This document shows, in pieces, positions 7,793 through 59,200 of a DNA stretch of 64,000 nucleotides. Each line of letters begins with the position of its first letter. Positions within the stretch are counted from its first letter, which is position 1. This stretch comes from a virus. Location: IMG/VR virus record IMGVR_UViG_3300036792_000267, positions 32,001 to 96,000 of that record. One strand, given 5' to 3'. The position numbers were made by a program, and so were the translations under genes. The notes beneath the pieces are model-generated. The model was not told the origin of the DNA. It saw nothing but the letters and a program-made list of their open reading frames with translations, and made no database searches.

Positions 7793-8589
7793 TTGGTCCC
7801 GCCTCCGGCTTCATTTAGCATGACGAGTGCCCCGCTAAAGGGGACCTGCTGCGCAAGCACAAGTCGCCGGTGCAGGACGCGCGCAACTACTTTCACGGCA
7901 ACGTGGTTGACCTGGCCATGCGCCGCTGGCTGAGCCAGGAGGACCCGGAGGCCGGGTGGATGGCCGCCCAGGTCGACGCGATCTTCGATGAGTCCATCGG
8001 CATCGCCAGGGACTCTGGTGACGGCATCGTCCGGTGGAAAGGCCCCAACGACAAGAACGAGACCCGCGAGTTCTGCCGCGAGCTGGTGAAGCGGCTGGAG
8101 CCTATCCTGTGCAAGTACGCTATCCCGTTTGAGTGGCAGCCCGCGGAGCGGTTCTCTGTGCCCCTCCGGATCGAGGACCTGAACGGGTCGATGCGCGAGA
8201 TCATCCTCATCGGCGAGATGGACTTGCTGGTGCGTGACCGCGAGGGGCGGTACGCGGTCTGGGACCTGAAGGCGACCAGGGACAACAGCTACTACAAGAA
8301 GGTGCTCGGCCAGCTCGCGTTCTACGCCATCGCCGTGAAGGCGATGAAAGGCCAGTTCCCGGTGATGACGGGACTGATTCAGCCGATGTGCGACCAGCGG
8401 GTGCTCCCGGTCACCGTCGACCATGACGCGGTAGCCCAGATGGCTGGCCGCATTACCAAGGCCGCCCGCGACATCTGGGCCGGCAAGCTCGCCCCAAAAG
8501 CTGACAATGCCGGGTGCGCGTACTGCCCGGTGAAGCACGCCTGCCCCAAGTTCAGCTCCGGCGGCCGGGCAGCCCTGGCTGCGGCGTAG
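7752..8589 (+). CDS. PD-(D/E)xK RecB/Cas4-like exonuclease; needs a 7-nt bypass at 7815-7821
   Basis: Strong SD + ATG 7752; SWS..H-D-E-CP N-terminal motif restored only by hopping CAT TTA G CAT; GEMD, DLK, QLAFY, CAYCPVKHAC. Confidence 0.85.
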
Positions 8590-8597
8590 TACCTGAC

Positions 8598-8849
8598 ATG
8601 GGACTTGAGGAGACGGTAGCCAGGCTGCGCGAGGACGTGACTGCCGCCCAGCGCCAGCACGCCAGCGCAGCGGCGCAGGCAGAACAGGCCGGCGCCCGCG
8701 CTGCCACGGTCCGCGAGGACCTGGAATCCGGGTTCGGCGTGACCACTGTGGAAGCAGCCAAGGCTGAGCTAGCCAGGCTGGAGAGCAAGCTCGCGACCGA
8801 GGCAGCCGAGGTACGGCGGCAGCTCGGCCTGGCAGGAGGGGCAGCATGA
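8598..8849 (+). CDS. Small coiled-coil protein
   Basis: ATG 8598 after CGTAGTA motif; heptad Ala/Glu pattern. Confidence 0.65.
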   Translation: MGLEETVARLREDVTAAQRQHASAAAQAEQAGARAATVREDLESGFGVTTVEAAKAELARLESKLATEAAEVRRQLGLAGGAA

Positions 8850-10015: not shown

Positions 10016-10030
10016 CAGAGAGGCACCGAG

Positions 10031-10585: not shown

Positions 10586-10756
10586 TGGCGGTCACTGTCG
10601 GAACGTTCCGCTTGTCGAGGCAGAGTGTGGCCGTCACTGACGGCAAGCGCCACATCCAGTTCGATACCCCTGCTGACATGGTGGACTGGCTGAACCGTCA
10701 CCCGGAGGTAGTTGCCGACATCTGCCATTTCGACTGGACGACTCAGGCAGTTCTTG

Positions 10757-11410: not shown

Positions 11411-11412
11411 TT

Positions 11413-14385: not shown

Positions 14386-14461
14386 CGACAATTGGGCAGG
14401 TGACAGCTTCGCGGTAGTCCCTCCCCCGGAGGTTCTGGAGCCCGTTGAGCAGCCCGCCTGA
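14312..14461 (+). CDS. 49-aa hypothetical peptide
   Basis: GGAGG RBS, GTG 14312, TGA 14459; CGTATTA motif upstream; below the ORF-track cutoff. Confidence 0.5.
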   Translation: MQAPGFSKPAHGYGQPFGISPDTTDDNWAGDSFAVVPPPEVLEPVEQPA

Positions 14462-24196: not shown

Positions 24197-24270
24197 AGGG
24201 GTGTAGCTCAGTAGGTCAGAGCAGCGGTCTCCAAAACCGTGTGCCGCGGGTTCGAATCCCTCCTCCCCTG
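24197..24270 (+). tRNA. tRNA-Trp(CCA)
   Basis: Cloverleaf; loop CT CCA AA. Confidence 0.9.
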
Positions 24271-24566
24271 CGACCGTCAGCAACGGCGAGAGCCTGAGCA
24301 GGCGCATGTCAACCGCATATTGACACTTCCACAGCGTGAGCATCTGCGGCGGGCGCCAACCCGCCGCAAGTTTCGGCGTGGTGAAAGACAATGCAGCTAC
24401 TCCCGGGGAGCAGCAGCCGTTAAAGGCTGGGGTCGCCGCAAGGCGGTCCTGTACCGGGCACCGTGCCAGTTTGAAAGCTTGCCGTGCCGTCATCAGGCGG
24501 AGTACACGGCAGCCAAGCGTGACGGCCGGGGCCGCGTTCACACCGTGGTCTCGCCGTCGCGCCTAT

Positions 24567-24639
24567 GGGGTCTTAGCTCAGCTGGAAGAGCATCTGCTCG
24601 GCAGACAGAAGGTCACGGGTTCAAGTCCCGTAGGCTCCA
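24567..24639 (+). tRNA. tRNA-Ala(GGC)
   Basis: G3:U70; loop TC GGC AG (C33). Confidence 0.8.
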
Positions 24640-24775
24640 CTGGACCGGATGGCAAGTCTGTCGCCATGTGTAGAGGGCCGTGACGGGTACCTCAGCGGCG
24701 GTTATACCGAAAGCCGGGTGTCTCCGGTGGCAAAGCGGCAGGTTTCGCGGGACATCTCCGTCATCCGGTTCTCCT

Positions 24776-24848
24776 GGGGCTTTAGCGCAGCTGGTAGCGC
24801 GCTGCATTCGCACCGCAGAGGCCGCGGGTTCGACTCCCGCAAGCTCCA
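24776..24848 (+). tRNA. tRNA-Ala(CGC)
   Basis: G3:U70; loop TT CGC AC. Confidence 0.88.
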
Positions 24849-25124
24849 CGTGGCGGACCGTGGCACGGCATCCGCAGCAGGGCCGATCACCCTGTGCACA
24901 GGTAACCGGCCTTGAATGCCCGGCGCGAGTCCAAGCGTCCGGGGCGGAGGCACCCGCCACTCCAATTCCCGGTGAGTAAGCCGTGGCAGGCTGAGGGGCC
25001 GGGGCAATGCGGAACAAGGCACGTGCTGGTCTGCCCCGTCGGTTCCAACCTCCGGGCCTGCTGGCCAAGGTCGCCTCGCCAGGCGGCTGATGCGGCGATG
25101 CAGGACCATGACGACCAGATTCAA

Positions 25125-25198
25125 CTAGCTATGGCGCAGCTTGGTAGCGCATCGCGTTCGGGACGCGAGGGCCGCAGGTTCAAATCCTGCTAGCCAGA
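25125..25198 (+). tRNA. tRNA-Pro(CGG)
   Basis: Loop TT CGG GA. Confidence 0.88.
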
Positions 25199-25199
25199 C

Positions 25200-25274
25200 T
25201 GGGGTGTAGGGAAGATTGGTCATCCCGCCTGCCTTGGGTGCAGGAGATCGCCGGTCCGAGTCCGGTCACCCCGA
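25200..25274 (+). tRNA. tRNA-Pro(TGG)
   Basis: Loop CT TGG GT; T-loop TCCGAGT. Confidence 0.82.
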
Positions 25275-25320
25275 CCCGTGTGAGTCAACCGACACACGTA
25301 AATCCCCATCGGTTGAGCCT

Positions 25321-25394
25321 GGGGCCTTAGCTCAGTTGGTAAGAGCGTCTGGTTGAAACCCGGAAGGTCGGTGCGTCGAGTGCACCAGGTCCCA
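25321..25394 (+). tRNA. tRNA-Phe(GAA)
   Basis: Loop TT GAA AC; atypical T-loop GTCGAGT. Confidence 0.82.
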
Positions 25395-25408
25395 CGCAGT
25401 AACACAAT

Positions 25409-25481
25409 GGGGATGTGGCCGAGCGGCTACAGGCTCCTGCCCTCCAAGCAGGCTACGCGGGTTCGATTCCCGTCATCCCCT
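25409..25481 (+). tRNA. tRNA-Gly(TCC)
   Basis: Loop CC TCC AA (C33); U73. Confidence 0.82.
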
Positions 25482-25588
25482 CTGGTACGGGCCAGACTCA
25501 TAATCTGGTTGCGTGCAAGCGGCTGTCGCGCCGCGGCCGGGCCGCCTGACGGGGGGCGACACCTTCGTCAGGGGCGCCGGTTGTTTAC

Positions 25589-25661
25589 GTGCCGCTAACT
25601 CAATTGGCAGAGTACCGTCCTCTTAAGTCGGGAGTTGGGGGTTCAAGTCCCTCGCGGCGCA
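25589..25661 (+). tRNA. tRNA-Lys(CTT)
   Basis: Loop CT CTT AA. Confidence 0.88.
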
Positions 25662-25744
25662 CTGGAGGCGGTCCGGAGACCGCGCCCGTGGCTGACAACG
25701 ACGTACAGGTCTCCTGCTGTCAGCGGGCCCGCCTCCAGCTTTTC

Positions 25745-25820
25745 GGGCGAGTAGCAGAACCGGCATATGCGGCGGCCTCAAAACCCGTGTCTCCTGCGGG
25801 TTCAAGTCCCGCCTCGCCCA
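25745..25820 (+). tRNA. tRNA-Leu(CAA)
   Basis: Loop CT CAA AA; short variable arm. Confidence 0.82.
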
Positions 25821-25917
25821 CGCGGCTGGCAAGGCCGTTCTGCGAATCCTTGCCCGGTCCCCTCTGCGGGAGGAACAGGTCCGTCAATCCGGGGTCAGCA
25901 AAGAGCCTCGGCAACTA

Positions 25918-25989
25918 TGGAGTATGGGGTAATCGGCAGCCCGGCAGATTCTGGCTCTGTCAGTCTTGGTTCGAGTCCAGGTACTCCAG
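25918..25989 (+). tRNA. tRNA-Gln(CTG)
   Basis: Loop TT CTG GC. Confidence 0.9.
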
Positions 25990-26108
25990 CGAGAGCAGCA
26001 GGTCAAGGTGCATCTCGATCTCGTCATTGGTGATGAGGCTGACAGCCAGGTCGATGAAGTCAAGTTCGTCCATACTCATTAAGTTCGCGAGCAGGCCGAA
26101 CTGTGAGG

Positions 26109-26654
26109 TCAGTCAGGAACGTAGAGGTGGTGCGGGAGGATGTTCAGCGTGTAAGTCCCGTCGAACCGCGGCATGCTGCCGGCCAGCTCCCCCAGGTGCC
26201 AGTAGACGTGGACCGCTAGGTGCTCCCACACGGCCCCGCCGGTCAGCAGGGACACCGGCACCCCGGCAGGCGCGGGAGCGTCCCACTGGCTGAGGTCGAA
26301 CTCGTCCAGTACCCGCAGCGCCTTGGTGACCGTCTGGCAGAACACGCGCAGCAGGACCACCTTCGGGAACGTCTCCCGGTCGACGCTGGCTGCCTTGCTG
26401 ACGGCACTGGGCTCGGCCAGGTTTGTCTCGTTGAACACCTGGTGGACCGAGCGGCTGAGGACCGTCCGCCGCCCGTCGAGCCACGAGCTGAACAGGTCAG
26501 CCACGCAGGCCAGGTGCCCGATCGTCCAGGCAGCGGAGAACCCGGTCGGGAGTTCTTCGAAGAACTCGTCGTTACTGACCGGCTCCAGGCCGAGTAGCAG
26601 TATGTTGCCGCTGCGGTCGATCTGCCGCGCGACGACTTGCTTAGCAGTAGTCAT
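26109..26654 (-). CDS. DinB/YfiT-like protein
   Basis: SAAWTIGHLA and HVYWHLGEL His motifs; CGTAGTA motif 5 nt upstream of ATG. Confidence 0.8.
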   Translation of the reverse strand: MTTAKQVVARQIDRSGNILLLGLEPVSNDEFFEELPTGFSAAWTIGHLACVADLFSSWLDGRRTVLSRSVHQVFNETNLAEPSAVSKAASVDRETFPKVVLLRVFCQTVTKALRVLDEFDLSQWDAPAPAGVPVSLLTGGAVWEHLAVHVYWHLGELAGSMPRFDGTYTLNILPHHLYVPD

Positions 26655-26665
26655 GCTTTTACTAC

Positions 26666-26739
26666 GCCCCGGTAGCTCAGCCGGAAGATGCGCTCGCTTC
26701 GTAAGCGAGAGGTCCCCAGTTCAACTCTGGGTCGGGGCT
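26666..26739 (+). tRNA. tRNA-Thr(CGT)
   Basis: Loop TT CGT AA. Confidence 0.85.
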
Positions 26740-26859
26740 CGGTCAGGCTGAGGCAGGGGAGGCCCTTCACCGGGTCGCACTAGGTTGCCCGCAGCCCAGT
26801 AGCTTGGGCACGGGAGAAGGATGCCGGGCAGCACGGCCCGGGTGTAGGCCTGACAACAA

Positions 26860-26943
26860 GCCCGAATGCTGCAATCGGTAGACTGACCCGCTTGAGGAGT
26901 GGGTGTCCTTCGGGGCGTGCGGGTTCGAGTCCCGCTTCGGGCA
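26860..26943 (+). tRNA. tRNA-Leu(GAG)
   Basis: Loop TT GAG GA; long variable arm. Confidence 0.88.
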
Positions 26944-27040
26944 CCTGGGGGAGATCCGGTGTAGCGCACCGGCTGGGGGCCAGGGCCCCTGGTAGTTCAA
27001 AAGTCGCTGACAGCCCTGGCAGAAAGAACACCCCCTCTAC

Positions 27041-27113
27041 GCCGGCTTAGCTCATCGGGCAGAGCGCCCGCCTTGTAAGCGGAAGGTGACCCGTTCGAGT
27101 CGGGTAGCCGGCT
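27041..27113 (+). tRNA. tRNA-Thr(TGT)
   Basis: Loop CT TGT AA. Confidence 0.88.
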
Positions 27114-27213
27114 CGGAGGCTGCATGCAAGGTACGGCGCGCTAACGCGCGGGACAGCGCAGGAACCCGAGTACCGTCGTAAACCGACTGTCCTTGCAGCC
27201 TCCTTCAGCTCGC

Positions 27214-27287
27214 TCCGGGGTGGGTTGTGCGGCATCCCGTCTTGACTTTGGATCAAGGGCACGCCAGTTCGATTCTGGCCCCCGGAA
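27214..27287 (+). tRNA. tRNA-Gln(TTG)
   Basis: Loop CT TTG GA; divergent D arm. Confidence 0.78.
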
Positions 27288-27296
27288 CAAGCACAT

Positions 27297-27370
27297 GCCC
27301 CGGTAGCTCAGTTGGCGAGAGCGTTTCCCTGGTACGGAGGAGGTCCCGCGTTCGATTCGCGGTCGGGGCT
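27297..27370 (+). tRNA. tRNA-Thr(GGT)
   Basis: Loop CT GGT AC. Confidence 0.88.
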
Positions 27371-27381
27371 CGCAAGATCAT

Positions 27382-27454
27382 GCCGACGTGGTGCAGCTGG
27401 TGGCACATCGCCTTGCCAAGGCGGAGGTCGCGGGTTCGAATCCCGTCGTCGGCT
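27382..27454 (+). tRNA. tRNA-Gly(GCC)
   Basis: Loop TT GCC AA. Confidence 0.88.
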
Positions 27455-27590
27455 CGTGTACCCCGCCGTGGCCACCGGGTAAGGGGGTTCAGCACATGCC
27501 CGGGTCGCGCCCGGCACGGTGGCACGGCTGCCCTGGCAGCCTGCTCTCCTGACGACAGGGGACAAGGGGGCTCAGCCCTCCCAGGGACGC

Positions 27591-27674
27591 GGGCGGGTGG
27601 CGGAATAGGCAGACGCGCACGGTCCAGGCCCGTGTATCCCGCAGGATGTGAGGGTTCAAGTCCCTCCTCGCCCA
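27591..27674 (+). tRNA. tRNA-Leu(CAG)
   Basis: Loop TC CAG GC (C33); long variable arm. Confidence 0.86.
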
Positions 27675-27765
27675 CTTTCGGGTCCGCTCCCGTGGCCCGG
27701 GGGCGTCGCGCATCGCGCCGCGGCGGTTCCAGTCCTCCTGCTAGCGGAGGGCGAACGGGAGGCCC

Positions 27766-27856
27766 GGAGGGATGGCACGAGTGGCTTAAGGCGCTGTCCT
27801 GCTAAGGCAGAGGGTCTGCGAGAGCGGCCCCGCGGGTTCGAATCCCGCTCCCTCCG
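27766..27856 (+). tRNA. tRNA-Ser(GCT)
   Basis: Loop CT GCT AA; long variable arm. Confidence 0.88.
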
Positions 27857-27941
27857 CTTCTGTACCGGATACCAGCCAAGTCCGTTAGGTGGTGACGCAG
27901 GTACAGCGCCCGCGGGAGACGGCAATCCTTGGCGGGCACCT

Positions 27942-28027
27942 GGAGGGTTCGCCTAGTCCGGCCTATGGCGCTGCGTCGGAAGCGCAGTTGGTTAACAGCC
28001 TCGCGAGTTCGAATCTCGCACCCTCTG
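27942..28027 (+). tRNA. tRNA-Ser(GGA)
   Basis: Loop TC GGA AG (C33). Confidence 0.85.
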
Positions 28028-28031
28028 CCCC

Positions 28032-28122
28032 GGAGAGGTAAATCGAGTTGGCCTACCGATCGCGGTCCCGAAAACCGTCAGGGGGTTCGTCCCCCGTGTG
28101 AGTTCGAGTCTCACCCTCTCTG
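28032..28122 (+). tRNA. tRNA-Ser(CGA)
   Basis: Loop CC CGA AA (C33); long variable arm. Confidence 0.82.
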
Positions 28123-28315
28123 CGCATGGCTTGAGGCGGTACCCGCGGGCCGCTGCAGGTACCGCCTCCGTAATCGCCAGGCGAATGAATCTGCTCGGAT
28201 TCAGCTTCGAGACCAGACTCGGTGCCTTGCAGGCGGCTGTTACCGCCTGCACCCGAAAGCATACATACGGTTACGATCTTGAGCAAGCGGCGAAATAGCT
28301 CAAGATGTCTGGCAC

Positions 28316-28388
28316 GGGCGGGCAGCTCGATGGTTCGAGCAGCTTCCTGATACGGAGAAGGTTGGAGGTTCAAGTCCTCCTCCGCCCA
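28316..28388 (+). tRNA. tRNA-Ile(GAT)
   Basis: Loop CT GAT AC; C at position 8. Confidence 0.82.
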
Positions 28389-28399
28389 CGTACGACCGG

Positions 28400-28473
28400 A
28401 GGCCGGTAGCTCAGCTGGTCAGAGCGACACGCTTATAACGTGTGCGTCAGGAGTTCAAGCCTCCTCCGGCCTA
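28400..28473 (+). tRNA. tRNA-Ile(TAT)
   Basis: Loop CT TAT AA. Confidence 0.85.
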
Positions 28474-28476
28474 CGA

Positions 28477-28552
28477 CGCGGGGTAGCTCAGTTGGCAGAG
28501 CAGCCGGCCCATAACCGGAAGGTCGCGGGTCCGAGTCCCGTCCTCGCTACCA
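28477..28552 (+). tRNA. tRNA-Met(CAT)
   Basis: Loop CC CAT AA (C33); 1:72 mismatch; encoded CCA. Confidence 0.82.
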
Positions 28553-28553
28553 C

Positions 28554-28627
28554 GGGCCGCTAGCTCAACAGCGAAGAGCAGTTGCCTTTTAAGCTTCAGG
28601 TTCCGGGTTCGAGCCCCGGGCGGCCCA
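28554..28627 (+). tRNA. tRNA-Lys(TTT)
   Basis: Loop CT TTT AA. Confidence 0.85.
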
Positions 28628-28778
28628 CTAGCCTGGTTCCTGTGAAGACTCTGGCCTGGCTCCTCGATGAAGCCCTGGACCGGCTCCCGTGCCGCGAGGA
28701 CGGCCGGTGGCGCTGGTACGGCGAGTGGGGCTGCCGACTGGAGAACAGGTTTCCTGTCCTGCGCGAGTGGATGTACGA

Positions 28779-28852
28779 GCGCCGGTAGCTCAGCCGGATA
28801 GAGCGGCTTCCTTCTAAGAAGACGGCCGGGGGTTCGAATCCCTCCCGGCGCG
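28779..28852 (+). tRNA. tRNA-Arg(TCT)
   Basis: Loop CT TCT AA. Confidence 0.88.
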
Positions 28853-28863
28853 CGCATGAACAT

Positions 28864-28941
28864 GGTCTTGCAGAGCAGTCCGGAGTGCTCGCCTGCCCCT
28901 CAAGCAGGAGATCGTCGGTTCGAATCCGTCCAGGACCACCA
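28864..28941 (+). tRNA. tRNA-Glu(CTC)
   Basis: Loop CC CTC AA (C33); C8; encoded CCA. Confidence 0.8.
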
Positions 28942-28942
28942 A

Positions 28943-29016
28943 GCCCCCGTCGACTAGCGGCCTAAGTTACCGCCCCTTCAAGGCGGCGGACACCGGTTCG
29001 AATCCGGTTGGGGGCA
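28943..29016 (+). tRNA. tRNA-Glu(TTC)
   Basis: Loop CC TTC AA (C33). Confidence 0.85.
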
Positions 29017-29050
29017 CGTGGGCATCAGGATTTATCCTGGTGTCCTTCGA

Positions 29051-29126
29051 CGCGGAGTAGGGGAGTTCGGTCGTCCCCGCGGCGCCCATAACGCCGAGAT
29101 CGCGGGTCCGAATCCCGCCTCCGCCA
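29051..29126 (+). tRNA. tRNA-Met(CAT), initiator-like
   Basis: C1:C72 mismatch; loop CC CAT AA (C33). Confidence 0.82.
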
Positions 29127-29230
29127 CGGGAAGGAACTGCCCAGCTCCCTTGCATCCGGATGCATCGGCACGCGCGGCTGGCGTTCCGGCACAGCGGCCC
29201 GGCCCCGGTCGTTCCCAAACGGGGCCTCTA

Positions 29231-29303
29231 TCCGGTGTGGCGCAATCGGCAGCGCAACTGACTGTTAATCAGAGGGTTCCCGGTCCGAGTCCGGGCACCG
29301 GAG
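29231..29303 (+). tRNA. tRNA-Asn(GTT)
   Basis: Loop CT GTT AA. Confidence 0.88.
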
Positions 29304-29412
29304 CGCGTGGGCCTGGGGCCTGCGGGATACAGCCTGGTCCGCGGCCGGGCCCGGGTCCCGTTGGGCGGAGAAGCAGCCATACCCAGGGAAGCGGGGGTGC
29401 CCCGCACATCAT

Positions 29413-29487
29413 GGTGACGTAACTCAGCATGGCCAGAGTGCTGCCTTGTCACGGCAGAAGTCGCGGGTTCAAATCCCGTCGTTACCG
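29413..29487 (+). tRNA. tRNA-Asp(GTC)
   Basis: Loop TT GTC AC. Confidence 0.9.
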
Positions 29488-29831
29488 CGTGCCCCGTCGT
29501 CGCACGATGACCGTGCAGGCCAGGGCGAACAGCGCTAGCAGGCCGATGACTGGCCATGTTAGCCAGTGCAGCCCGGCCGCCTTCAGCAGGTCATCAAGGA
29601 TGAAGCCGAGCGCGACGCCGACCAGGATGAACAGCATCGTTAGCCGAGCCCGGCGCGACGCCGCCGCTCGGCGTGCTCGAAGTCACGGATGCGCCGGATG
29701 GCGAGGTGGCCGCCGAACTTGAGGCCGGTCGCGATGCCAGCGCCGAAGACGGCTAGCAGCAAGATGAAAGTGCCCACGTGATTAAACGGTACGTCACCCC
29801 CTGGTCTCTTTACCAGGGGCAAGCAAGACAT

Positions 29832-29905
29832 GGCCGTGTAGCTCAGCAGGCTAGAGCGTTTCCATGACACGGAAGAGGTCCCTGGTTCAAGTCCAGGTAC
29901 GGCCA
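29832..29905 (+). tRNA. tRNA-Val(GAC)
   Basis: Loop AT GAC AC. Confidence 0.88.
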
Positions 29906-29906
29906 C

Positions 29907-29979
29907 GCGCGCGTAGCTCAACGGATAGAGCTGCAGTCTACGGAACTGTGTGTTGGAGGTTCGAGTCCTCTCGTGCGCA
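29907..29979 (+). tRNA. tRNA-Arg(ACG)
   Basis: Loop CT ACG GA. Confidence 0.9.
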
Positions 29980-30039
29980 CTGGACGGCAGGTGAGCAGGC
30001 TGACACCGCCTTCGGGCTCAGCCCCCTGCCGTCTTTCAA

Positions 30040-30113
30040 GTCCGGTTAGCTCAGCCTGGGAGAGCGCTGCCTCCACACGGCAGGCGTCGGGGGTTCAAAT
30101 CCCTCACTGGACA
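30040..30113 (+). tRNA. tRNA-Val(CAC)
   Basis: Loop TC CAC AC (C33). Confidence 0.85.
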
Positions 30114-30114
30114 C

Positions 30115-30190
30115 GGTGGGATTTGCCGTCGAGGGAAGGCGCAGGGTTGTGGTCCCTGCAAGGCGGGTCCGACTCCCGTATCTCACCCCA
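30115..30190 (+). tRNA. tRNA-His(GTG)
   Basis: Loop TT GTG GT; G-1; encoded CCA. Confidence 0.82.
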
Positions 30191-30191
30191 A

Positions 30192-30271
30192 AGCGACAGT
30201 GGGCGGCGGCACGCCCAGCGGCCTGTAAAGCCGTGGCCTTGGCAGACCTGGGTCGGCACCAGGTGTCGCTA
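30192..30271 (+). tRNA. tRNA-Tyr(GTA), atypical
   Basis: Loop CT GTA AA; intact acceptor stem; aberrant D and T loops. Confidence 0.7.
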
Positions 30272-30364
30272 CGTTAAGGTTTTCCCGAGAAAAGGAGAGC
30301 CTATGCCCAGGTACACGATTCCCTGCGTCGCCCACTGTGAAAGCGGGGCATTAACGCAGGTCTT

Positions 30365-30438
30365 GCGCTCGTAGCTCAGTGGACAGAGCACCGGCTTCCG
30401 GAGCCGGGTTGTCGGAGGTTCGAGTCCTCTCGGGCGCG
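30365..30438 (+). tRNA. tRNA-Arg(CCG)
   Basis: Loop TT CCG GA. Confidence 0.9.
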
Positions 30439-30442
30439 CTAT

Positions 30443-30519
30443 GGCGGTATGGCCGAGTGCGGTTCAGGCACACGTCTGCAAAACGTGGTACCCGGGTTCG
30501 ACCCCCGGTACCGCCTCCA
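30443..30519 (+). tRNA. tRNA-Cys(GCA)
   Basis: Loop CT GCA AA; U73; encoded CCA. Confidence 0.88.
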
Positions 30520-30520
30520 T

Positions 30521-30594
30521 GACCCTGTAGCTCAGCTGGACAGAGCTGCTTCCCCCTAAGGAGCGAGTCGCTGGTTCGAGTCCAGCCAGGGCCA
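30521..30594 (+). tRNA. tRNA-Arg(CCT)
   Basis: Loop CC CCT AA (C33). Confidence 0.82.
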
Positions 30595-30903
30595 CGTACG
30601 CCGGTGCTCACGCTGTGGCAGTTCCGAGGTCCAATTACTCCCCGTCGTCCCCTGGGACTGGCGGGGATTTTCCTTGTGCTTATGGTGTAAGGCAGGAGGC
30701 CGGGTACGTGACTCGGCTTCGCGGATCGAGAACGGAACCGGCCTCCTGCCCCATCAGAGTACATTCGCCTCATTGTCCCGGTTCATCCCGTAGCCCGGGT
30801 TTGGTCACGGTTCAGTTAACTTGTGGCAAGAAACACGGTTCCTGCGCCATAGTGGACTGTTTCCCCGCGGTCAGCGCGGGGGTTGGAGTGAGGGGAACGC
30901 TCT

Positions 30904-38691: not shown

Positions 38692-38762
38692 TACTGCCAG
38701 CTGCGTAGTAAGCTGCCGTCGCCAGGCCCCCGGGACGCCCGTCCGCTGGGGGCCTGGTCCTT

Positions 38763-39470
38763 TTAGGCGGCGGCCTCTAGCGCCATCCGGGCCTGGTGCC
38801 GCTCTATGTAGTCGGCTGCAGCCCGTAGCAAGTCGGGGTCGTCGTTGAACATGCCGAGAGCGACGTTGAGGTTCCGGCGGATTAGCCCGCGTAGGCATTT
38901 CCCGCAGCTCCGGTCACCGGGACAGCAACTGCGGTCGTGATCGACGGCGAGGGGGTAAACCTTGCCGGTGCGCTTGCTGACCGAGGTCTCAGGTCGGCCG
39001 CTGATCTCGCAGACGCCGGCCTGCTCAGCTAGTTTTTGGTCGTACCAGCCTGGCGGAAGGCTGTAGACACGATCTCGGTTCTTGGCCCCTTCGCCGTTTG
39101 CGCTGAGGCAGTCCCAGCATTTCCGGCGGTTCTGGTGAGTGGGGTTCACTCTGCAGGTGGCGCAGAGTTTCCCTTGCGCCCGGCAAGCTCCGCACTCGTT
39201 GCGCTCCTTGTCGCCGGGGCTCTTATCTCGCCCGCAGGTAACGCACTTGATTCGGCAGGCCGGGCAACGTTGAGCCTTTGCTCGGTTGTTGCCGCGGTAG
39301 GGCTGGCCGCATGATTCGCAGGGGCGTTCAGCTGTGGCGTATCCGCTGCGCTTACGGACTTTGGCGGCGGCGCACAGGGAGCAGTACGAGCTGAGGGCTC
39401 CTGATGGATAGCGGTGCCGTGGCCGCGTTTTGCAGGTCGGGCAGATGGGTTCGTTTCCGGAGACATTCAC
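38763..39470 (-). CDS. Endonuclease VII-family homing endonuclease with N-terminal Cys repeats
   Basis: LAVDHDRSCCPGDRSCGKCLRGL..N.ALG.F.DDP.LLR.A..Y. Confidence 0.85.
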   Translation of the reverse strand: MNVSGNEPICPTCKTRPRHRYPSGALSSYCSLCAAAKVRKRSGYATAERPCESCGQPYRGNNRAKAQRCPACRIKCVTCGRDKSPGDKERNECGACRAQGKLCATCRVNPTHQNRRKCWDCLSANGEGAKNRDRVYSLPPGWYDQKLAEQAGVCEISGRPETSVSKRTGKVYPLAVDHDRSCCPGDRSCGKCLRGLIRRNLNVALGMFNDDPDLLRAAADYIERHQARMALEAAA

Positions 39471-39637
39471 ATTCTCTACTACGTCTGGCCGACTTACCGA
39501 TTAGACGGGGCAAGCGCTCAGGCGTTAGGCCAGCCAGGTGGCTCCTCTACGAGGGAGCGGCGCAGGCCGGGCTCGGAACTTCGGGTCGCTGTGGAACTTA
39601 ACAGCACCTGCCGGCAATGGTCGGCTGACCGGAGGAG

Positions 39638-40883
39638 GTGAGCCCGATCCCTGACATCAGTCTTTTGGAGCCCGTAGTGCTCCGAGGGGTCGTTTTAAGT
39701 TGAGAAGTTTGTAACGCCAGAAACGTTGCTGCTGCTCAACCGCCTGGACCAGACCCCGTGGCCCTTCCCGTCCGCCACCTGGGACGTGGTGAAGGGATCG
39801 AGAGCGGTCGCCAAGCCGAACGTGCCCAACTCTGAGGCGCACATCATCTCCCGGCTCGGCAGGAGCCAGGAAAGCGCGAGCTTCATCTACTTGCGCGAGA
39901 AGAAGGTCTTTGAGCCGACCACGCTGCACTGGCTGCGGACGCCGGGCGAGATCGCCCGCATCAACGCCGAGCGCGCGGTGCTGAGGGAGATCAACGACCT
40001 CAACCAGCGGTTCGACAACTTCGCCGAGTGGAGCGCCTGGCAAGCGCTGGGCGGCGCGATCCAGTACAACTACGGCGACGTCCAGGCCCTGGTGGACTAC
40101 AAGTTCCCGCGCAGCCACTTCGTCACCCCGGCCACGCCGTGGGTCACTAACACCGCGCTCGGCTACTACACCACCGGCGGCGCCACCGCGGCCGGCGCGG
40201 GAACCAACAGCGGCCAGCCGGGCCAGCCGACCACCCTGGGCCAGGCCCAGACCTCGCTGACCGCGGCCGGCGGCACCATCACCTACGCGACCCCGGTGTC
40301 GATCATCGAAGACGTGCGGTCGTGGAAGCGGCTGCTGGCCGTGCACGGCCGGGTGCCGGCGAAGGAAGTTTTCGCCACCAGCGTCACCATGGCCGGCCTG
40401 ATGGAAGCGTGGGTGTCCGCCACGCAGGCGTCTACCGTGTCGATCCCGGCGACCATGATGAGCGACCGGATGAAGGACGAATTTTACTCGACCGGCATCA
40501 TGACCGGCTTCATGGGCCTCGTCTGGACCACGGTGGAGCAGGTCTTCGAGTCCGACCTCGGCAACCTGACCTTCTTCGTGCCGGATGGCATGATCTACCT
40601 GGGCAACTACACCGACCAGCGGCCAGTGGAGGTCCTGGTCGGCCCGACTGCCGACGACGAGGCCCCCGAAGGTTTTACCGGAAAATATGCCAAGACCTGG
40701 AAGGAGAAGGACCCGTCCGCTCGTCAGTACCTGTTGGAGTGGCACATGCTCCCGATCATCACCAGGCCTGAGCAGATGCTGGTAGCCACCAACGTCATCT
40801 CTGCGGGCGGCAGCGTCACCGTCCCGGCCGGCTACTACAACGGCGGGGCCGGCACTGGCGGAAGCAACGCGCCGGTCGACTAG
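39638..40883 (+). CDS. Major capsid protein; needs a 7-nt bypass at 39695-39701; start GTG 39638 or ATC 39647
   Basis: Lambda E-like pattern, follows decoration gene; N-terminal PDISLLEPVVLRGVV joins EKFVTPETL only by hopping GTT TTA A GTT. Confidence 0.85.
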
Positions 40884-52823: not shown

Positions 52824-52857
52824 CAGCGCTCTGTTGTCCTTTCCGCGTATTAAAGGT

Positions 52858-53427: not shown

Positions 53428-53484
53428 AAGCACAACCGATTAAACCTCCCGAAGGCGCAACCGGCCATCGGGAGGTCTGTCGTT

Positions 53485-54144: not shown

Positions 54145-54146
54145 CC

Positions 54147-54359: not shown

Positions 54360-54493
54360 CTGCGTAAGCTGGCTGTTGGCTGAGGAAGGCCGAGAACGGC
54401 GCGCTTGGGCACAGGGGAGACCCTGAAGCGCGCCGTTCGCATGTCCGCCGATTGTCCCGGCATCAGCCCCGAGAGTCCCTGAGAGGACCCGTT

Positions 54494-55506
54494 ATGCCGG
54501 ATAACAGTGAACTGGATCGTATCGATCCACAGCCGGAGACGTGCAAGCTGTCCACCGGCTTCGAGGTCGACATCGTGCGGATGCGCACCCGCCAGTTCTT
54601 CCGCTTGCTGCGCGTGCTGACCCACGGGGCAGGCCCCGCGCTCACCCAGTCCGGGCTCGACTTCGCGGCCGGAGGCGAGGAGTTCACCCAGAAGCTGCTC
54701 ATGCTCGTGGTGATGTCCATCCCCGACGCCGAGCAGGAGGCCATCGGCTTCCTGGCGTCAATGTGCCGGCCGTCCGGCATCACGGACAAGGCTGCCTCCC
54801 AGCTGACCAAGCAGGAAAACGAGGCCAACCAGGCGCTGTGGACCCGGTTCAACGAGGAGCTGCACAACCCTGACCTGGAGGACACCCTCGACCTGGTTGA
54901 GATTATCGTCCGGCAGGAGTCGCCTGAGCTGCAGGCCCTGGGGAAAAAACTCCAGCGGACGTTCAAGATCTTCCAGGCGACGGGCCAGGACAGGGAGGCC
55001 CCGGAGCCGGAGGCGAGCCCGCAGGAGATCAACTCGCCGGAGCGTTCGCCTCAGCTTTCGACGTCCTCAGCCACGAGTACGGGTGGACCGACGAGTACGT
55101 CCTCGACCTCCCGGTCTGCCGGCTCCGGCAGTGCCTCGAAGCGGCGGGCGCACGCCGGAAGCGAGAGCAGCTAAGCCGCCTGCGGCTGGCCGAATGGCAG
55201 GTGAAGATGGTGTGCCAGTTCATCGGCGCGCAGGCCATGGTGGACACCAAGGCGCACGGCGGCAAGAACCCGCTGGTGGAGCTGGCCGCATCCATCGACA
55301 TCTTCGGCGGCAAGTCCCCCGAGGAGCAGGAGCTTGACCGCATTCGCGGGCCGAAGGTGGCCGACTCGGTTGAGGACGACCCGCGGTTCGGCAAGGTGGC
55401 CGCCGACCCCGACGCCGGCGTGGAGGCCGCGAATGCGAGCGGTTCGTATGAGGCTTTCATGGCCATGATGGGCGGACCGCCGCCTATGCCGGGCCGCGGG
55501 GGGTGA
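54494..55506 (+). CDS. Tail assembly chaperone G (54494-55174) and GT via -1 frameshift
   Basis: GGGGAAAAAAC at 54940-54950; -1 frame open to 55506 with HEYGWTDEYVLDLP motif. Confidence 0.8.
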
Positions 55507-55528
55507 GGGCGTGGGCGTAGTAGTCAGC

Positions 55529-56230
55529 ATGGTACGTAATTCATCAATGCTGTCCGACGAGTCTTGGCTGCGCGAGCGCTACCTCGTTGACGAACTGTCC
55601 ACCACCGCCATTGCGGCGCTGGCCAACTGCTCTCAGGCCACGGTGTGCAACCGGCTGGCCGGGTACGGAATCCCGCGGCGTCCCCGAGGTCGCTTTACGC
55701 AGAGCCGGATCGACGCTGACGGCCGAGAGTGCACGGCTTGCGGTGACTACAAAGCGTGGAACGAGTACTCGCCTAGCAAGCCGACGCAGCCAGGCGGCCG
55801 GTACTCCGTCTGCAAGGTCTGCTGGAACGGCACGCGCGGTGGCGGCCCCGGTAACCGGAATGGCGAGTACCGTGCGTGGGCACTCAAGCGCATGGGCATC
55901 ACGCAAGCCGAGTACGACTGGCTGCTAGCCCTGCAGAAGGGCGTGTGCGCTCTCCATGGTGGCCCGGAGACTAGGAAGGGTGCGCTGTACCTTTCCGTCG
56001 ACCACGACCACAACTGCTGTCCGCCGGTAAAGGTCGGGCAGACCCGGTGCTGCAAGAAGTGCATCCGCGGCCTGCTCTGCCACGACTGCAACCACATGGT
56101 CGGCCTAGCTGAGAAGCTAGGTCAGGCGTGGCGGTTCCCTGATTACCTGGGCTCGCGCCCCTTCATGGGGAAGGGGGTGGTGCTCATGACGCCTTATTCT
56201 GAGCCTCTGAGCCACAGTTGTGGCTTATGA
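55529..56230 (+). CDS. Endonuclease VII-family homing endonuclease with N-terminal HTH
   Basis: WLRERY..LST..IA, LSVDHDHNCC, IRGLLCHDCN. Confidence 0.85.
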   Translation: MVRNSSMLSDESWLRERYLVDELSTTAIAALANCSQATVCNRLAGYGIPRRPRGRFTQSRIDADGRECTACGDYKAWNEYSPSKPTQPGGRYSVCKVCWNGTRGGGPGNRNGEYRAWALKRMGITQAEYDWLLALQKGVCALHGGPETRKGALYLSVDHDHNCCPPVKVGQTRCCKKCIRGLLCHDCNHMVGLAEKLGQAWRFPDYLGSRPFMGKGVVLMTPYSEPLSHSCGL

Positions 56231-59200
56231 GGGACCAGAATACTGGTTAGATCGCTTTGGTATGTAATTTACAAGGCGATCGGTTTAACATTCAGGTGAC
56301 TTCGGCGACCTGATGCGGGACGCGGCGCAGGCTAAGGCCGCGCTGCAGGGGATGGGCGATGCGGCCAAGGCGGAGACCGCGGCCGAGGTGGCGGGCGCGA
56401 CCCAGGCCGCCGCCGCGCGCGGCAAGGGCATCACGTCCATCCAGCAGGAGACGCAGGCCCTTAACCAGCTCGCCAACGCCGCCAAGCAGACCAACGTCCA
56501 GCTGCTCTACGGCGGCCGGAATGACATGACCCAGCACCTGAGCGACCTGGCTCAGGAGCTGAACTACACCACCTTGCTCAACCGGCAGAAGTGGCTCGGC
56601 TTCTCCTCCGTCCAGCAGGCCATGTCGTACCGCCAGCAGATGTATAACCTGGCGCTGCTGGAGAACAAAGCGCACTTCGCCGGCTACCTGACCGCGGACC
56701 AGTACCTGGGCTTCCTGCAGCGCGAGACCGCCCAGACCGCGGCGCTGTCGGCCGCCATCCGCGACCGCAGCGCGGCCATCGGCGCCGAGACCCAGATGCT
56801 GCTCGCGCACGCCAACGCGCTGCAGGGCACCCACGCGACGGCAGGCAGCCTGGGCGAGGGCCTGAGCACGGTCAACGCCTACAACGTGGCGCTGGTCGGG
56901 CTGCCGGACACGGTGGTCACCAAGGCCGTCCTTGATGACAGCCAGGCGATGTCGCAGCTGGCTGCCTACCGCGCGGCGCTGACCTCGCTTCCCAACGCGG
57001 AGACCACCGACATCACCTCGGTTGCCACCCGGCTGGGCGGCGTCCCGCTGACGGGCGCGCGCCAGGCGGTGCCGGTCAGCGTCCGCCCCGAGATCGACTA
57101 CGCCGCGATCAACAAGATGCTGTCCCAGGCGGTCGCCGGGGCGCACCCGGAGGCGCTGCGCGCGCCGCTGGCCATCACCGGGTCGGGAGCGGCGGATTCC
57201 GCGCTGTCGGCCACGGCGGATTCCGCGCTGTCGGCCACGGCGGACGACGCCGGCGCGCTGTCGGCGTCCATGTCCGAGCTGAGCGACAAGGCGGCCATTT
57301 CCGCCGAGGCAATCAGCAAGTTCCAGGACTCCCTCGCGCTGGCCGCGGTCGACGCCCGCGCGCTGGAGCAGGGACTCGGGCGCCTGTCGGCCGCCGAGCA
57401 GCTGCTGTCTGAGGTTAACGCCCAGTTCGTGCCGCAGAAAGGCCGCAAGAAGGCGGCGGCTGCCGACCCGGCGCAGAACCTCGCTGACCTGTACGGGCTG
57501 CAGGACGTCGCCGGCGCGCTGCGCGAGGGCGCGATCTCCGACGCGCCGCGCGGCTACCCGCTGTCCGCCCCGGGCATGAAGATCATCCCGCCGACGCAGG
57601 CGGGAGAAGAAGACCTGTGGTCGGGGCTGTCCAAGTACATGCAGGGCGGCAAGGCCGCGGGGACTGCCACCGAGAAGGTTGCCGTCGAGGGCGGCCAGGA
57701 GGCCGAGGCGACCCTCGACAAGATCGCCGTCCAGATGGAGTGGCTGGACCATGAGGATGCCAAGCCGAAGCTAGAGCTGGAAGGCGGCCAGGAGGCGCTA
57801 GACGACGCCTACCACCTGGACGGCGTACTCGTCGGCCTGACTTACGAGCGCGCGGAGCCGGAAGTCGCCCTGCAAGGCGGAGCCGAGGCGCTGGGAGAAG
57901 TCACCGCCCTGGACGAGGGGCTGCACGAGATCCCGCACGAGACTGACACCGTCCTGGTGGTCGAGTCCTCCGGGGCCTCCAGCGAGGTCCGCGATTACAG
58001 CCGCGACATTGAGGACATCGAGCGTGAGGTGGGCACTCGCGCCGACTTCGAGGACACCGAGGCGGAGAGCGGGCTGTCGCGCTGGCTGACCGCCCTGGCT
58101 GCGGCGGTCCAGCACAAGTACGACTTCTACGCCAGCTTCAACGACGACGCGGCCAAGGCCGAGCTGGCCGGGTGGATCAGCGAGCTTGAGGCGGCACGCG
58201 CCGAGGAGAACCGCATCACCGCCGGCATGGGCGGTGCCTCCGGTGGCGGTGGCGGCGGAGGGCCGCCTGTTCCCCCTGCTGCCGCCGGCGACGCGCCCAA
58301 CCCGGATGACCGGGCGATGTGGGAGGCCGTCGCCGCCGAGATGGCCAAGGTAGACGCCCTCTTCAAGAACACCGGCCGTGACGCCGCTGCCGCCGGGGCC
58401 GCCGCGTCCAAGGCCGGCCGGGACGGCGCGCAGGCGGTCACCTCGATGGTGCTGCCGCTGACCAACGGCGCGCGCGGCTGGTTCGGCCTGCTCACCCAGG
58501 TCAACCTGTTCGGCGGCCTGCTGCCCGGCATCCTGGGCCACACCACGGCCCTGCACTTCGTCCTTGACGCGATCATCGAGACGATCGCCATCCTGCTGCC
58601 GGCCATCGTCACCATGGCAGCCGGGCTGACCGCGTTCGGCATCGCTGGCTACGACGCCGGCAAGGCGGTCTACGAGCGCCTGACGGCGATTCACACCGCG
58701 GCCGACGCCACCGGCCAGTCCATCCCGCCGCTGACCGGGAACCTGGAGAAGCTGCACGACACGGTGCGCCCGCAGGTCTGGCAGTTGTATGGCGACGCCA
58801 TCACCGTCGCGGGGGCGAAGTCCGGGCTCTTCAACCAGCTGGCCATCCAGACCGGGAACGTGGTCGACCGGCTGGCCGCGCGGCTGACGGTGGACCTGGT
58901 GCAGGGTGGCCAGGGGCTGAAGACGTTCCTGTCGGTCGGCGCGGAGAACCTGGCCAAGCTCGGCACCATCTTCGACAACCTCGGCAAGGCCCTGATGGCG
59001 TTCATCAAGGTCACCGAGGACACCCACATTGACCAGATTTTCCTGGCCATCTTCGTGGCGCTGTCCCAGTTCCTGGTGCTCATCACCAAGCTGCCCACCC
59101 CGTTGCTCGCCGCCGTGGTCGCGCTGCACGCGTTCTGGCTGTGGGGCGGCCTGCTGGCCACCGTGGTCCTGCAGATGCTCAACCCGCTGCGCTCGCTGGC

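Follow-up and report, generated by a model that had tools for sequence, protein, structure and literature searches.

In a 64,000-nt stretch of viral DNA from soil (hereafter the window), we find that three phage genes, which encode an exonuclease, the major capsid protein and the tape-measure protein, are broken by four short inserts that all begin with TTA. The window comprises bases 32001–96000 of a single 151,377-bp contig with 68% G+C from a soil metagenome assembly (IMG/VR record IMGVR_UViG_3300036792_000267). Comparison of the sequences with those of related phages makes it quite probable that the four inserts are coding gaps read by UUA-triggered translational bypassing, i.e. the ribosome would leave the message at the codon before the UUA and resume at a matching codon further downstream. 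The gaps most likely originate from a set of homing-endonuclease cassettes, and the present genome is a particularly rich instance, with three genes, four gaps and three cassettes.

We named the gaps S1 (exonuclease), S2 (major capsid), and S3 and S4 (tape measure). The present phage genome is called G0, whole relatives are called G1, G2, G5, G6 and so on, and related loci from IMG/VR are numbered with the prefix L. Five whole relatives were fetched, which resulted in a comparison set of six genomes including the present one. IMG/VR contains about 80 related contigs, several of them near-complete (124–152 kb).

Four inserts in three phage genes

The initial annotation had reported four inserts that share one layout, in which a codon is followed by TTA, a spacer and the same codon again. 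These inserts were recovered as described: each motif is found once, at 7812, 39692, 56244 and 56282 (0–0.02 expected by chance). Written as take-off codon/gap, the layouts are CAT/TTAGCAT (S1), GTT/TTAAGTT (S2), TGG/TTAGATCGCTTTGG (S3) and GGT/TTAACATTCAGGT (S4), and the landing codon is identical to the take-off codon at all four sites. In the zero frame, a stop codon occurs 2, 2, 6 and 4 codons past the TTA at S1, S2, S3 and S4, respectively. The exonuclease, capsid and tape-measure genes are each single-copy. The coordinates of all features are collected in Table 1.

When the inserts are removed, the genes yield continuous proteins that are collinear with their exonuclease, capsid and tape-measure relatives, as the initial annotation had claimed. 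For the exonuclease, 21 codons lead into CAT TTA GCA TGA, and the body of the protein continues in the +1 frame from 7822. At the place of TTAGCAT, all six relatives (6/6) read an unbroken LSWSRLRxH-DECPAK. Over the last 15 codons of exon 1, there are 39 synonymous and 28 non-synonymous codon differences to these six relatives.

For the major capsid gene, 19 codons from GTG 39638 are followed by GTT TTA AGT TGA, and the body starts at 39702. The hopped N-terminus aligns without gaps to the capsid of Microbacterium phage Magritte, the closest isolated phage (about 48% protein identity), whose capsid gene is uninterrupted (LRGVV/EKF versus LRGVVERF). It also aligns without gaps to 49 distinct uninterrupted IMG/VR alleles. 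Codon comparisons between exon 1 and these 49 alleles gave 230 identical, 482 synonymous and 121 non-synonymous pairs.

The start of the tape-measure gene contains two inserts in series. The sites at first resembled AT-rich intergenic DNA, until the comparison with G1. The tape-measure open reading frame (ORF) of G1 (2,855 aa) aligns to the window from 56289 onward, and its start reads MAYEGPSYWYVIYKAVG, GGT TTACCCA GGT, DFSDLMRDAA; G1 thus lacks an insert at S3 and has a different, 10-nt insert at S4. Four tape-measure alleles (L100, L102, L103 and L106) run AYEGPEYWYVIYKAIG-DFGDL without a break. The S3 insert is present in G6, which is the sister genome and closest relative of the present phage; it is 13 nt long in L101 and absent from G1, L099, L100 and L102–L106. 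At S4, we found the alternatives TTACCCAGGT in G1, TTAGCTCGGT in L099 and TTAACATCCAGGC in L101, and no insert in L100, L102, L103 and L106. Tape-measure exons 1 and 2 differ from the four uninterrupted alleles by 27 synonymous and 5 non-synonymous changes. Among the insert-bearing alleles G0, G6 and L101, only synonymous differences are found in the mini-exons, at a locus that is about 20% diverged at the DNA level (G0 and G6 are about 80% identical there).

Judging from these codon comparisons, purifying selection acts on the mini-exons upstream of the gaps, in the frames required for the hop. The homologues lack exactly these inserts, as had been predicted: they are missing from 6/6 exonuclease relatives, from Magritte and 49 further capsid alleles and from four tape-measure alleles. 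The three junction peptides that had been predicted, RLRLH-DECPAK, LRGVV-EKFVTPE and PEYW-YVIYKAIG-DFGDL, are correct by sequence.

A series of TTA-led gaps in related phages

To find further gaps, we used a junction scan of the six genomes. At each occurrence of a triplet, 4–26 nt were removed in lengths that are not multiples of three, and a match was recorded where the joined 40-residue peptide aligned without gaps to an uninterrupted ORF of another genome. The cut-off was set at a score of at least 65 bits; the range of 55–65 bits was noisy from alternative frames. With TTA, nine matches reached this cut-off (maximum 98.5 bits), corresponding to eight independent sites. The control triplets ATA, AAT, ATT, TAT, AAA and TTT, which are of similar abundance, resulted in 0, 0, 1, 2, 2 and 0 matches, respectively (maximum 68 bits), and the ATT match overlaps a TTA. 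The effect is thus specific to TTA.

Frame breaks were also detected by a homology scan that is blind to TTA. Among its 17 listed breaks, S1 and S2 were recovered and four matches fell into the tRNA region; nine further breaks were inspected and rejected as ordinary junctions of a stop, a Shine-Dalgarno (SD) sequence and a start. Scans for the layout that used only the G+C content of third codon positions (GC3) or codon usage (log-likelihood ratio, LLR) were too unspecific or insensitive to short exons, and homology tests were used instead.

In total, we found 16 distinct gap alleles in exonuclease, capsid, tape-measure and portal genes. All of them (16/16) start with TTA, and their lengths are 4, 7, 10, 13 or 14 nt, none of which is divisible by three. 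The last three bases of the gap are identical to the take-off codon in seven alleles, differ by a U/C wobble read by the same tRNA in five, change GGA to GGT in one, and have a mismatch at the first position only in three. The landing codon is hence cognate in 12–13 of the 16 alleles, and in the remainder it pairs at positions 2 and 3. Furthermore, the TTA is followed by a purine in 14/16 alleles, which creates UAA or UAG in the +1 frame.

The alleles of relatives are built in different ways. The capsid alleles L004, L006, L052/L054 and L080 carry other TTA-led inserts of 7 or 10 nt at the same or an adjacent codon. In the tape measure, the inserts are 10 nt in L099, 13 nt and 13 nt in L101, 10 nt in L104 and 4 nt in L105, again all TTA-led. 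The L105 allele (about 1480–1500) has just four extra bases, AAG/TTAG. The portal gene of G6 carries two TTA gaps, ACC/TTAAGCC and GGC/TTAACCTGGT, which are both absent from the portal gene of the present phage (a 534-aa ORF identified by Pfam). Among close relatives, the number of gaps per genome varies from 0 to 4, with none detected in G2 and G5.

Part of the tape-measure start region is predicted to be structured. A 10-bp hairpin at 56250–56284 is formed by GAUCGCUUUG in the S3 gap and CAAGGCGAUC, which ends directly before the S4 take-off codon, and the 106-nt start region folds better than 198 of 200 shuffles (z = -2.5). This hairpin may help the second hop. In the capsid allele L006, GGT/TTAACCCCGC (about 200–255), the TTA lies in the loop of a GGGGU/ACCCC hairpin and the landing codon matches positions 2 and 3 only.

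Endonuclease cassettes next to the gaps

The genome contains exactly three ORFs of the Endonuclease VII family, and each of them lies immediately upstream of one of the three interrupted genes. They are diverged paralogues (40–48% identical over the core). The cassettes are 0.7–1 kb long, have clean insertion edges when G0 is compared to G6, G1 and G2, and are missing from uninterrupted alleles. Each gap of the present genome is located at or close to the 3' end of a cassette of 0.7–0.8 kb. The right edges of the exonuclease and tape-measure cassettes fall exactly at the landing codons of S1 and S3. Each of these two cassettes contains a nuclease gene, its own copy of the first codons of the target gene and the TTA spacer, and directly adjoins the resident codon, which explains how the matched codons arise. 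The cassette-borne first exons of both genes match the relatives as protein and not as DNA. For the capsid gene, the cassette stops about 140 nt short of the start and does not include the S2 gap. In G6, the exonuclease and capsid cassettes are both missing, as are their gaps. In addition, the twice-interrupted portal gene of G6 is directly preceded by an HNH endonuclease ORF, which lies in about 980 nt that the present genome does not have.

We compared nuclease and gap presence across loci. At the capsid locus, an upstream nuclease gene is present in 4/5 insert alleles versus 9/45 plain alleles (Fisher p=0.013); for this count, the table was corrected by hand, with L074 reclassified as uninterrupted and the locus of the window added. 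At the tape-measure locus, a nuclease is present at 4/7 insert alleles versus 0/4 plain alleles.

Some capsid alleles have unusual 5' ends. The nuclease-positive but uninterrupted alleles L003, L012, L015, L025, L049 and L062 contain odd synonymous codons (TTG AGG, CTA, GTA) at the usual spot of the TTA gap, about 20–40 nt before the junction, which may be an alternative escape from the nuclease. L043 (about 2900–3000) has an upstream Endonuclease VII gene. Here, the capsid body is preceded by sequence without relation to the 19 codons that usually open the gene, which may reflect a larger rearrangement of the capsid 5' end. Alleles with cassette-type 5' ends (window 39632–39650, L004, L010 and L049) have the capsid start three codons further upstream, at a GTG, and ATT or ATC replaces the ATG/GTG start of the other alleles.

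tRNA genes and ordinary TTA codons

The leucine anticodons among the 37 phage tRNAs are CAA, GAG and CAG only, i.e. there is no tRNA-Leu(UAA), whereas tRNAs for all four take-off codons are encoded (His-GTG, Val-GAC, Trp-CCA and Gly-GCC). The six related genomes encode 31–37 tRNAs each, and their Leu(UUR) reader is for UUG only and never UAA. Most of the six genomes pair U34 and C34 readers for Lys, Glu, Gln and Arg(AGR); G1 has no Gln-UUG. This tRNA set fits slow decoding of UUA during infection. However, G2 and G5, in which no gaps were detected, likewise lack tRNA-Leu(UAA), and the missing tRNA is thus permissive and not diagnostic.

In-frame TTA is close to absent outside the gaps, as noted by eye in the initial annotation: with a self-trained codon-usage gene caller, we counted 5 in 39,615 called codons, most of them close to the ends of genes. 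The in-frame TTAs that we inspected are gene-end codons overlapping the start of the next gene or conserved ordinary codons, and none is a further gap. A few of them (genome 15469, outside the window; window 18382) lie within the last 5–6 codons of genes, for instance in a TT-ATG overlap. Both were rejected as recoding sites: at the former, a gene ends normally in an overlap with the next ATG, and at the latter, an ordinary junction is followed by a gene with a start of its own in all relatives.

A fifth candidate at window 14272–14460 was also rejected. Here, GGC GTA TTA C near the 3' end of the 990-aa radical-SAM gene is conserved in five genomes, and the TTA at 14278 is followed by a conserved tail of about 55 aa (...PGF...PEVLEPVEQPA and a stop) that is in frame 0 in G2 and G6 and in frame +1 in G0, G1 and G5. 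The tail has a conserved GGAGGA-N4-GTG start in G0, G1 and G6 (degenerate in G2 and G5), and it probably represents a small gene of its own for which recoding is not required.

How the interrupted genes may be read

We propose that a ribosome on the mini-exon would come to have the take-off codon in its P site and the very rare UUA in its A site. As UUA is read by no phage tRNA and the host tRNA is presumably scarce, the ribosome would stall. During the stall, the peptidyl-tRNA would release, the mRNA would slide by 7–14 nt and the tRNA would re-pair with an identical codon or one read by the same tRNA, after which translation would continue in the new frame and give a normal full-length protein. 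A ribosome that decodes the UUA instead would stop 2–6 codons later, and a simple +1 slip would meet UAA or UAG at once. Since the +1 frame is closed in this way in 14/16 alleles and the zero frame stops after 2–6 codons, the long product would be made only via a hop to the landing codon. The hop would depend on scarce tRNA-Leu(UAA). In analogy to T4 MobA and gene 60, the target site of the nuclease is probably disrupted by the gap, so that the carrier would be immune while insert-free relatives are cut, and bypassing would render the insertion harmless at the protein level.

The alternative that survives best accepts the hop and gives the gaps a purpose for the phage. They would be kept because they make the production of capsid, tail and nuclease proteins depend on the state of the UUA-decoding tRNA of the host, either via a bldA-like developmental signal in Streptomyces or via a late-infection loss of host tRNA, such that particles are made only in a suitable host state. 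We regard such a regulatory gate as rather doubtful. It agrees with the abortive stop 2–6 codons past each TTA, with the lack of a UUA reader among 37 phage tRNAs, with the near-absence of in-frame TTA elsewhere (5 in 39,615 codons) and with the gaps in late structural genes of several relatives, and the same logic has been published for phiHau3 terL (PMC10732093). However, a core circuit should be conserved, whereas the gaps are sporadic (0 to 4 per genome) and none was detected in G2 and G5, which have the same tRNA set. The exonuclease is not a late structural gene, and the genome comes from a soil metagenome, with the nearest isolates infecting Microbacterium, Arthrobacter and Streptomyces at no more than 48% identity. 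Furthermore, a selfish nuclease gene of its own travels with each gap and explains its presence without any benefit to the phage. Each interrupted gene follows its own homing-endonuclease-type gene in a cassette that is missing from uninterrupted alleles. Several independent invasions of selfish elements that are tolerated via bypassing therefore account for the multi-gene pattern better than regulatory wiring does. Under this explanation, the dependence of expression on UUA decoding would be a by-product. The initial annotation had proposed an inverted bldA switch that is wired into several genes at once and permits full-length proteins only while UUA is hungry. Its structural components are borne out, namely real gaps, matched codons, a quick stop in the unhopped frame and no UUA decoder among the 37 tRNAs. 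The co-ordinated wiring is possible but finds no support: G2 and G5 have no detected inserts and also no tRNA-Leu(UAA), so that the lack of this tRNA is not specific to insert carriers, and the nuclease cassettes explain the pattern better.

It is improbable that there is no hop and that translation restarts downstream (at TTG 39726, GTG 7870 or ATG 56313), which would give N-terminally shortened proteins and leave the mini-exons as leftover leader peptides. An in-frame start codon does follow 8–16 codons past each landing site, and ATG 56313 is conserved in all tape-measure alleles. However, the mini-exons and the codons from the landing site to the next start are conserved as protein with mostly synonymous change, also among insert-bearing alleles, and neither TTG 39726 nor GTG 7870 is preceded by a SD sequence. 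Restarts would deprive the exonuclease of its conserved DECPAK cysteine motif and the capsid protein of 27 conserved N-terminal residues, and they leave the matched codons and the TTA unexplained.

A +1 frameshift, in which UUA and the next codons are decoded and the ribosome shifts at the zero-frame stop with 2–4 added residues, is more improbable still. Shifty stops are a known frameshift device (prfB). Most gap lengths are a multiple of three plus one, a TGA overlaps the landing codon in S1, S2 and S4, and the 4-nt TTAG allele of L105 fits a quadruplet or +1 reading. Yet the P-site codons before the stops (GCA, AGT and AGG) are unable to re-pair in the +1 frame, the 14-nt S3 would need a +2 shift, and the conserved junctions in homologues leave no room for added residues. 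The repeat of the take-off codon by the last three gap bases in 12–13 of 16 alleles also remains unexplained by a frameshift.

An assembly or sequencing artefact, or a defective genome, is hardly credible: although this is a metagenome assembly that was checked against contigs, the depth is about 170x in the source soil sample with no indel at S2–S4 among the entries listed (Logan contigs, not raw reads), a soil-sample contig of a second study matches 39500–39796 with 0 differences and thus contains S2 letter for letter, the same or related gaps occur in independently assembled relatives that are about 20% diverged, and the mini-exons are under selection. No contig piece among those listed was shown to span both S3 and S4. 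Restart, frameshift and artefact are all disfavoured because none of them explains the matched codons together with the conserved mini-exons.

Several observations weigh against UUA-triggered bypassing of cassette-derived gaps. The hop is deduced from sequences alone. At S1 and S2, local RNA folding gave no significant structure compared to shuffled controls (z = 0.4 and -0.05), and there is no obvious stimulator at these sites. The landing codon is imperfect in 3/16 alleles, and the four extra nt of L105 can also be read as a quadruplet. The link between nuclease and gap is not one-to-one: nine capsid loci have a nuclease without a gap, and the insert alleles L004, G1, L099 and L104 have no nearby nuclease. 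The matched codons could in part be a by-product of cassette recombination and not selected for hopping. The capsid protein is presumably needed in many copies and would demand efficient bypassing, and the phiHau3 bypass product was described as very low-level in Streptomyces. The in-frame ATG 56313 is downstream of both tape-measure gaps and conserved, so an N-terminally shortened protein is possible. Lastly, some ordinary in-frame TTAs are retained (for example at 14278, conserved in five genomes), which indicates that UUA is readable to some degree.

Relation to known bypassing systems

UUA-mediated bypassing has been described in the large terminase gene of phiHau3 (g6/g7/g8), StrepC.1 and S. 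catenulae prophages (Smith et al. 2013, cited in Antonov et al. 2023, PMC10732093). According to the latter article, the phiHau3 gaps are backed by a mass-spectrometry junction peptide from E. coli, and regulation by bldA was proposed. In the text of PMC10732093, the term 'HNH' was not found and the single mention of 'endonuclease' refers to SmrB. As in phiHau3, the gaps analysed here are short, frame-breaking, UUA-led blocks (7 or 10 nt in the phiHau3 type) that are lacking in homologues and lead to an early stop when not hopped. The proposed trigger is also alike, with an empty A site at the rarest codon and re-pairing of the peptidyl-tRNA downstream. All four of our sites have the UUA block at the 5' end of the gap, flanks that are adjacent in homologues, a landing codon that can be re-paired and an early unhopped stop. 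Unlike in phiHau3, the gaps are located in exonuclease, capsid and tape-measure genes (and in the portal gene of G6) and not in the terminase. A single genome has four gaps, of which two follow each other within 17 codons, and they are up to 13–14 nt long. The gaps of the present genome all lie within the first 9–21 codons and are tied to homing-endonuclease cassettes. Furthermore, phiHau3 is a Streptomyces phage, whereas we here describe a 151-kb virus with 37 tRNAs.

Gene 60 of phage T4 reportedly contains a 50-nt bypass that belongs to a MobA homing-endonuclease cassette, as is said to have been described by Huang in 1988 and by Bonocora in 2011. Similar to this system, our loci combine a mobile cassette with a free-standing nuclease, a copy of the target's flanking codons (T4 'homR') and a gap with matched codons. 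The nuclease ORF overlaps the new exon, and uninterrupted alleles exist in close relatives. For the T4 cassette, the bypass insert was found to block self-nicking and often outlives the nuclease gene (bioRxiv 10.1101/2022.08.31.505936). A lost nuclease with a kept gap is likewise seen here at S4 in G1 and L099, which have no nuclease. We thus find an adjacent free-standing nuclease gene, joint presence and absence of nuclease and gap with clean edges (imperfect across loci) and cassette-borne target codons. In contrast, the T4 gap is 50 nt long, starts at a UAG stop and needs a nascent-peptide signal and a take-off stem-loop. Its nuclease is of the HNH type (MobA), and it always affects one gene, a topoisomerase gene, which is split in two. 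The present gaps are 7–14 nt long and TTA-led, S1 and S2 have no significant structure, the nucleases are of the Endonuclease VII family and at least four different genes are affected. The HNH nuclease MobA, the 50-nt gap, the UAG take-off and the nascent-peptide signal, which would indicate homology to the T4 element, have no counterpart in our loci. The present elements work like the T4 cassette, yet they are outside that element family.

Hopping at 'hungry' codons in E. coli, in which starvation for the A-site tRNA lets the peptidyl-tRNA slide to a matching codon over few to tens of nt, was described by Gallant and Lindsley and by Weiss et al. 1987 (cited in PMC10732093). Unlike these low-level hops in laboratory constructs, the layout found here is natural and recurrent and occurs in genes that a phage should need. 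The mitochondria of Magnusiomyces capitatus are said to contain 'byp' elements of 27–55 nt that derive from GC clusters, a report attributed to Lang et al. in 2014. Both there and here, many short mobile gaps with matched take-off and landing codons are found in several essential genes of one genome. The byps differ in that they involve mitochondrial translation, have no nuclease gene and no such rare-codon trigger. A 2025 paper mentions UUA bypass in the Bxb1 primase as speculation only (PMC12646305). In our literature search, we found no paper on UUA gaps in capsid, tape-measure, portal or nuclease genes, nor any that links UUA gaps to homing endonucleases.

Genome context

Among the proteins encoded by the genome are a portal of the Mu type, a major capsid protein of the lambda-E type, a tail assembly chaperone and a tape measure of about 2,780 aa, besides a PD-(D/E)XK nuclease and a radical-SAM protein. 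When the capsid and exonuclease regions were compared to isolated phages by megablast, no match was found. Scans of bacterial genomes for prophage relatives detected none for the capsid and only one copy of the portal with 49% identity. This copy is on L139 (CAYQKN010000090.1), a 16-kb contig of a metagenome-assembled genome labelled as an uncultured Burkholderiales. L139 is probably a mis-binned phage contig and uninformative on the host.

Table 1. Interrupted loci, their cassettes and the tRNA array in window coordinates.
Feature	Position	Strand	Remarks
Exonuclease-locus cassette	6946..7818	+	about 835 nt beyond the matching G6 interval; blastn G0 vs G6: homology ends at 6945 and returns at 7819 (37 nt in G6); right edge abuts S1 landing codon
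Endonuclease VII-family (homing-endonuclease-type) ORF, 190 aa	7220..7792	+	Pfam Endonuclease_7 E=1.5e-13; PHROG endonuclease VII E=4.6e-18; 3' end overlaps exonuclease exon 1
Exonuclease exon 1	7752..7814	+	21 codons, ATG to take-off CAT; encodes MSGKIGDDGALRLSWSRLRLH; peptide kept in 6 relatives
Putative coding gap S1, TTAGCAT, 7 nt	7815..7821	+	landing CAT 7819-7821; zero-frame stop TGA 7821-7823; missing from 6/6 relatives
Exonuclease exon 2, PD-(D/E)XK nuclease beginning DECPAK	7822..8589	+	Pfam PDDEXK_1 E=1.6e-16; first start codon in frame is GTG 7870
tRNA array, 37 genes	24197..30595	+	genome 56197-62595; ARAGORN, whole genome
Capsid-locus cassette	38697..39496		about 730 nt beyond the matching G6 interval (blastn G0 vs G6)
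Endonuclease VII-family ORF, 235 aa	38763..39470	-	Pfam Endonuclease_7 E=1.8e-7; PHROG endonuclease VII E=2.3e-17; divergent from the capsid gene, about 170 nt upstream of capsid start
Major capsid exon 1	39638..39694	+	19 codons, GTG to take-off GTT; encodes (M)SPIPDISLLEPVVLRGVV
Putative coding gap S2, TTAAGTT, 7 nt	39695..39701	+	landing GTT 39699-39701; zero-frame stop TGA 39701-39703
Major capsid exon 2, Phage_cap_E fold family, beginning EKFVTPETLL	39702..40883	+	Pfam PF03864 E=9.7e-23; gapless to Magritte capsid across the junction
Tail assembly chaperone ORF	54452-55174		PHROG; upstream of the 239-aa Endonuclease VII-family ORF
Tape-measure-locus cassette	55494..56257	+	about 720 nt beyond the matching G1 interval; blastn G0 vs G1 and G2: homology returns at 56258; right edge abuts S3 landing codon
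Endonuclease VII-family ORF, 239 aa	55511..56230	+	Pfam Endonuclease_7 E=6.2e-12; PHROG endonuclease VII E=4.2e-20; between tail assembly chaperone and tape-measure genes; stop overlaps tape-measure GTG start
Tape-measure exon 1	56220..56246	+	9 codons, GTG to take-off TGG; encodes (M)AYEGPEYW
Putative coding gap S3, TTAGATCGCTTTGG, 14 nt	56247..56260	+	landing TGG 56258-56260; holds 5' arm of the 10-bp hairpin
Tape-measure exon 2	56261..56284	+	8 codons, YVIYKAIG; last is take-off GGT
Putative coding gap S4, TTAACATTCAGGT, 13 nt	56285..56297	+	landing GGT 56295-56297
Tape-measure exon 3, beginning DFGDLMRDAA	56298..64000	+	runs off the window; ORF 56313..63998 open at 3' end

Implications

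Programmed bypassing is among the rarest ways to read genes, known from T4 gene 60, yeast mitochondrial byps and one weakly documented Streptomyces phage terminase. The loci described here form a natural allelic series, in which 16 gaps of different build occupy defined sites of four genes and insert-free alleles serve as matched controls. The series reveals the features that are kept: TTA comes first and is usually followed by a purine, no length is divisible by three, pairing at positions 2 and 3 of the landing codon is retained, and the gaps of the exonuclease, capsid and tape-measure genes lie within the first 9–21 codons. The link of short rare-codon hops to homing endonucleases suggests an origin for the gaps and would be a second, independent example of the logic of T4 MobA. 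As gene callers split or truncate such genes, the annotations of capsid, portal and tape-measure genes in metagenomic actinophages would be systematically wrong.

More generally, we tentatively suggest that soil actinophages may host diverse homing-endonuclease cassettes that plant a TTA-led spacer behind a copied codon, with the ribosome hop repairing the damage. The 5' ends of almost any essential gene, such as those for capsid, tape measure, portal and nuclease, would then be open to invasion, and several virion proteins would have become dependent on host UUA decoding, as a consequence or by later co-option. If the dependence on tRNA-Leu(UAA) holds, it would be a route for the tRNA state of the host to control particle production, and if cassette-based UUA dependence is real, it would provide the phage with a built-in sensor of the physiological state of its host.

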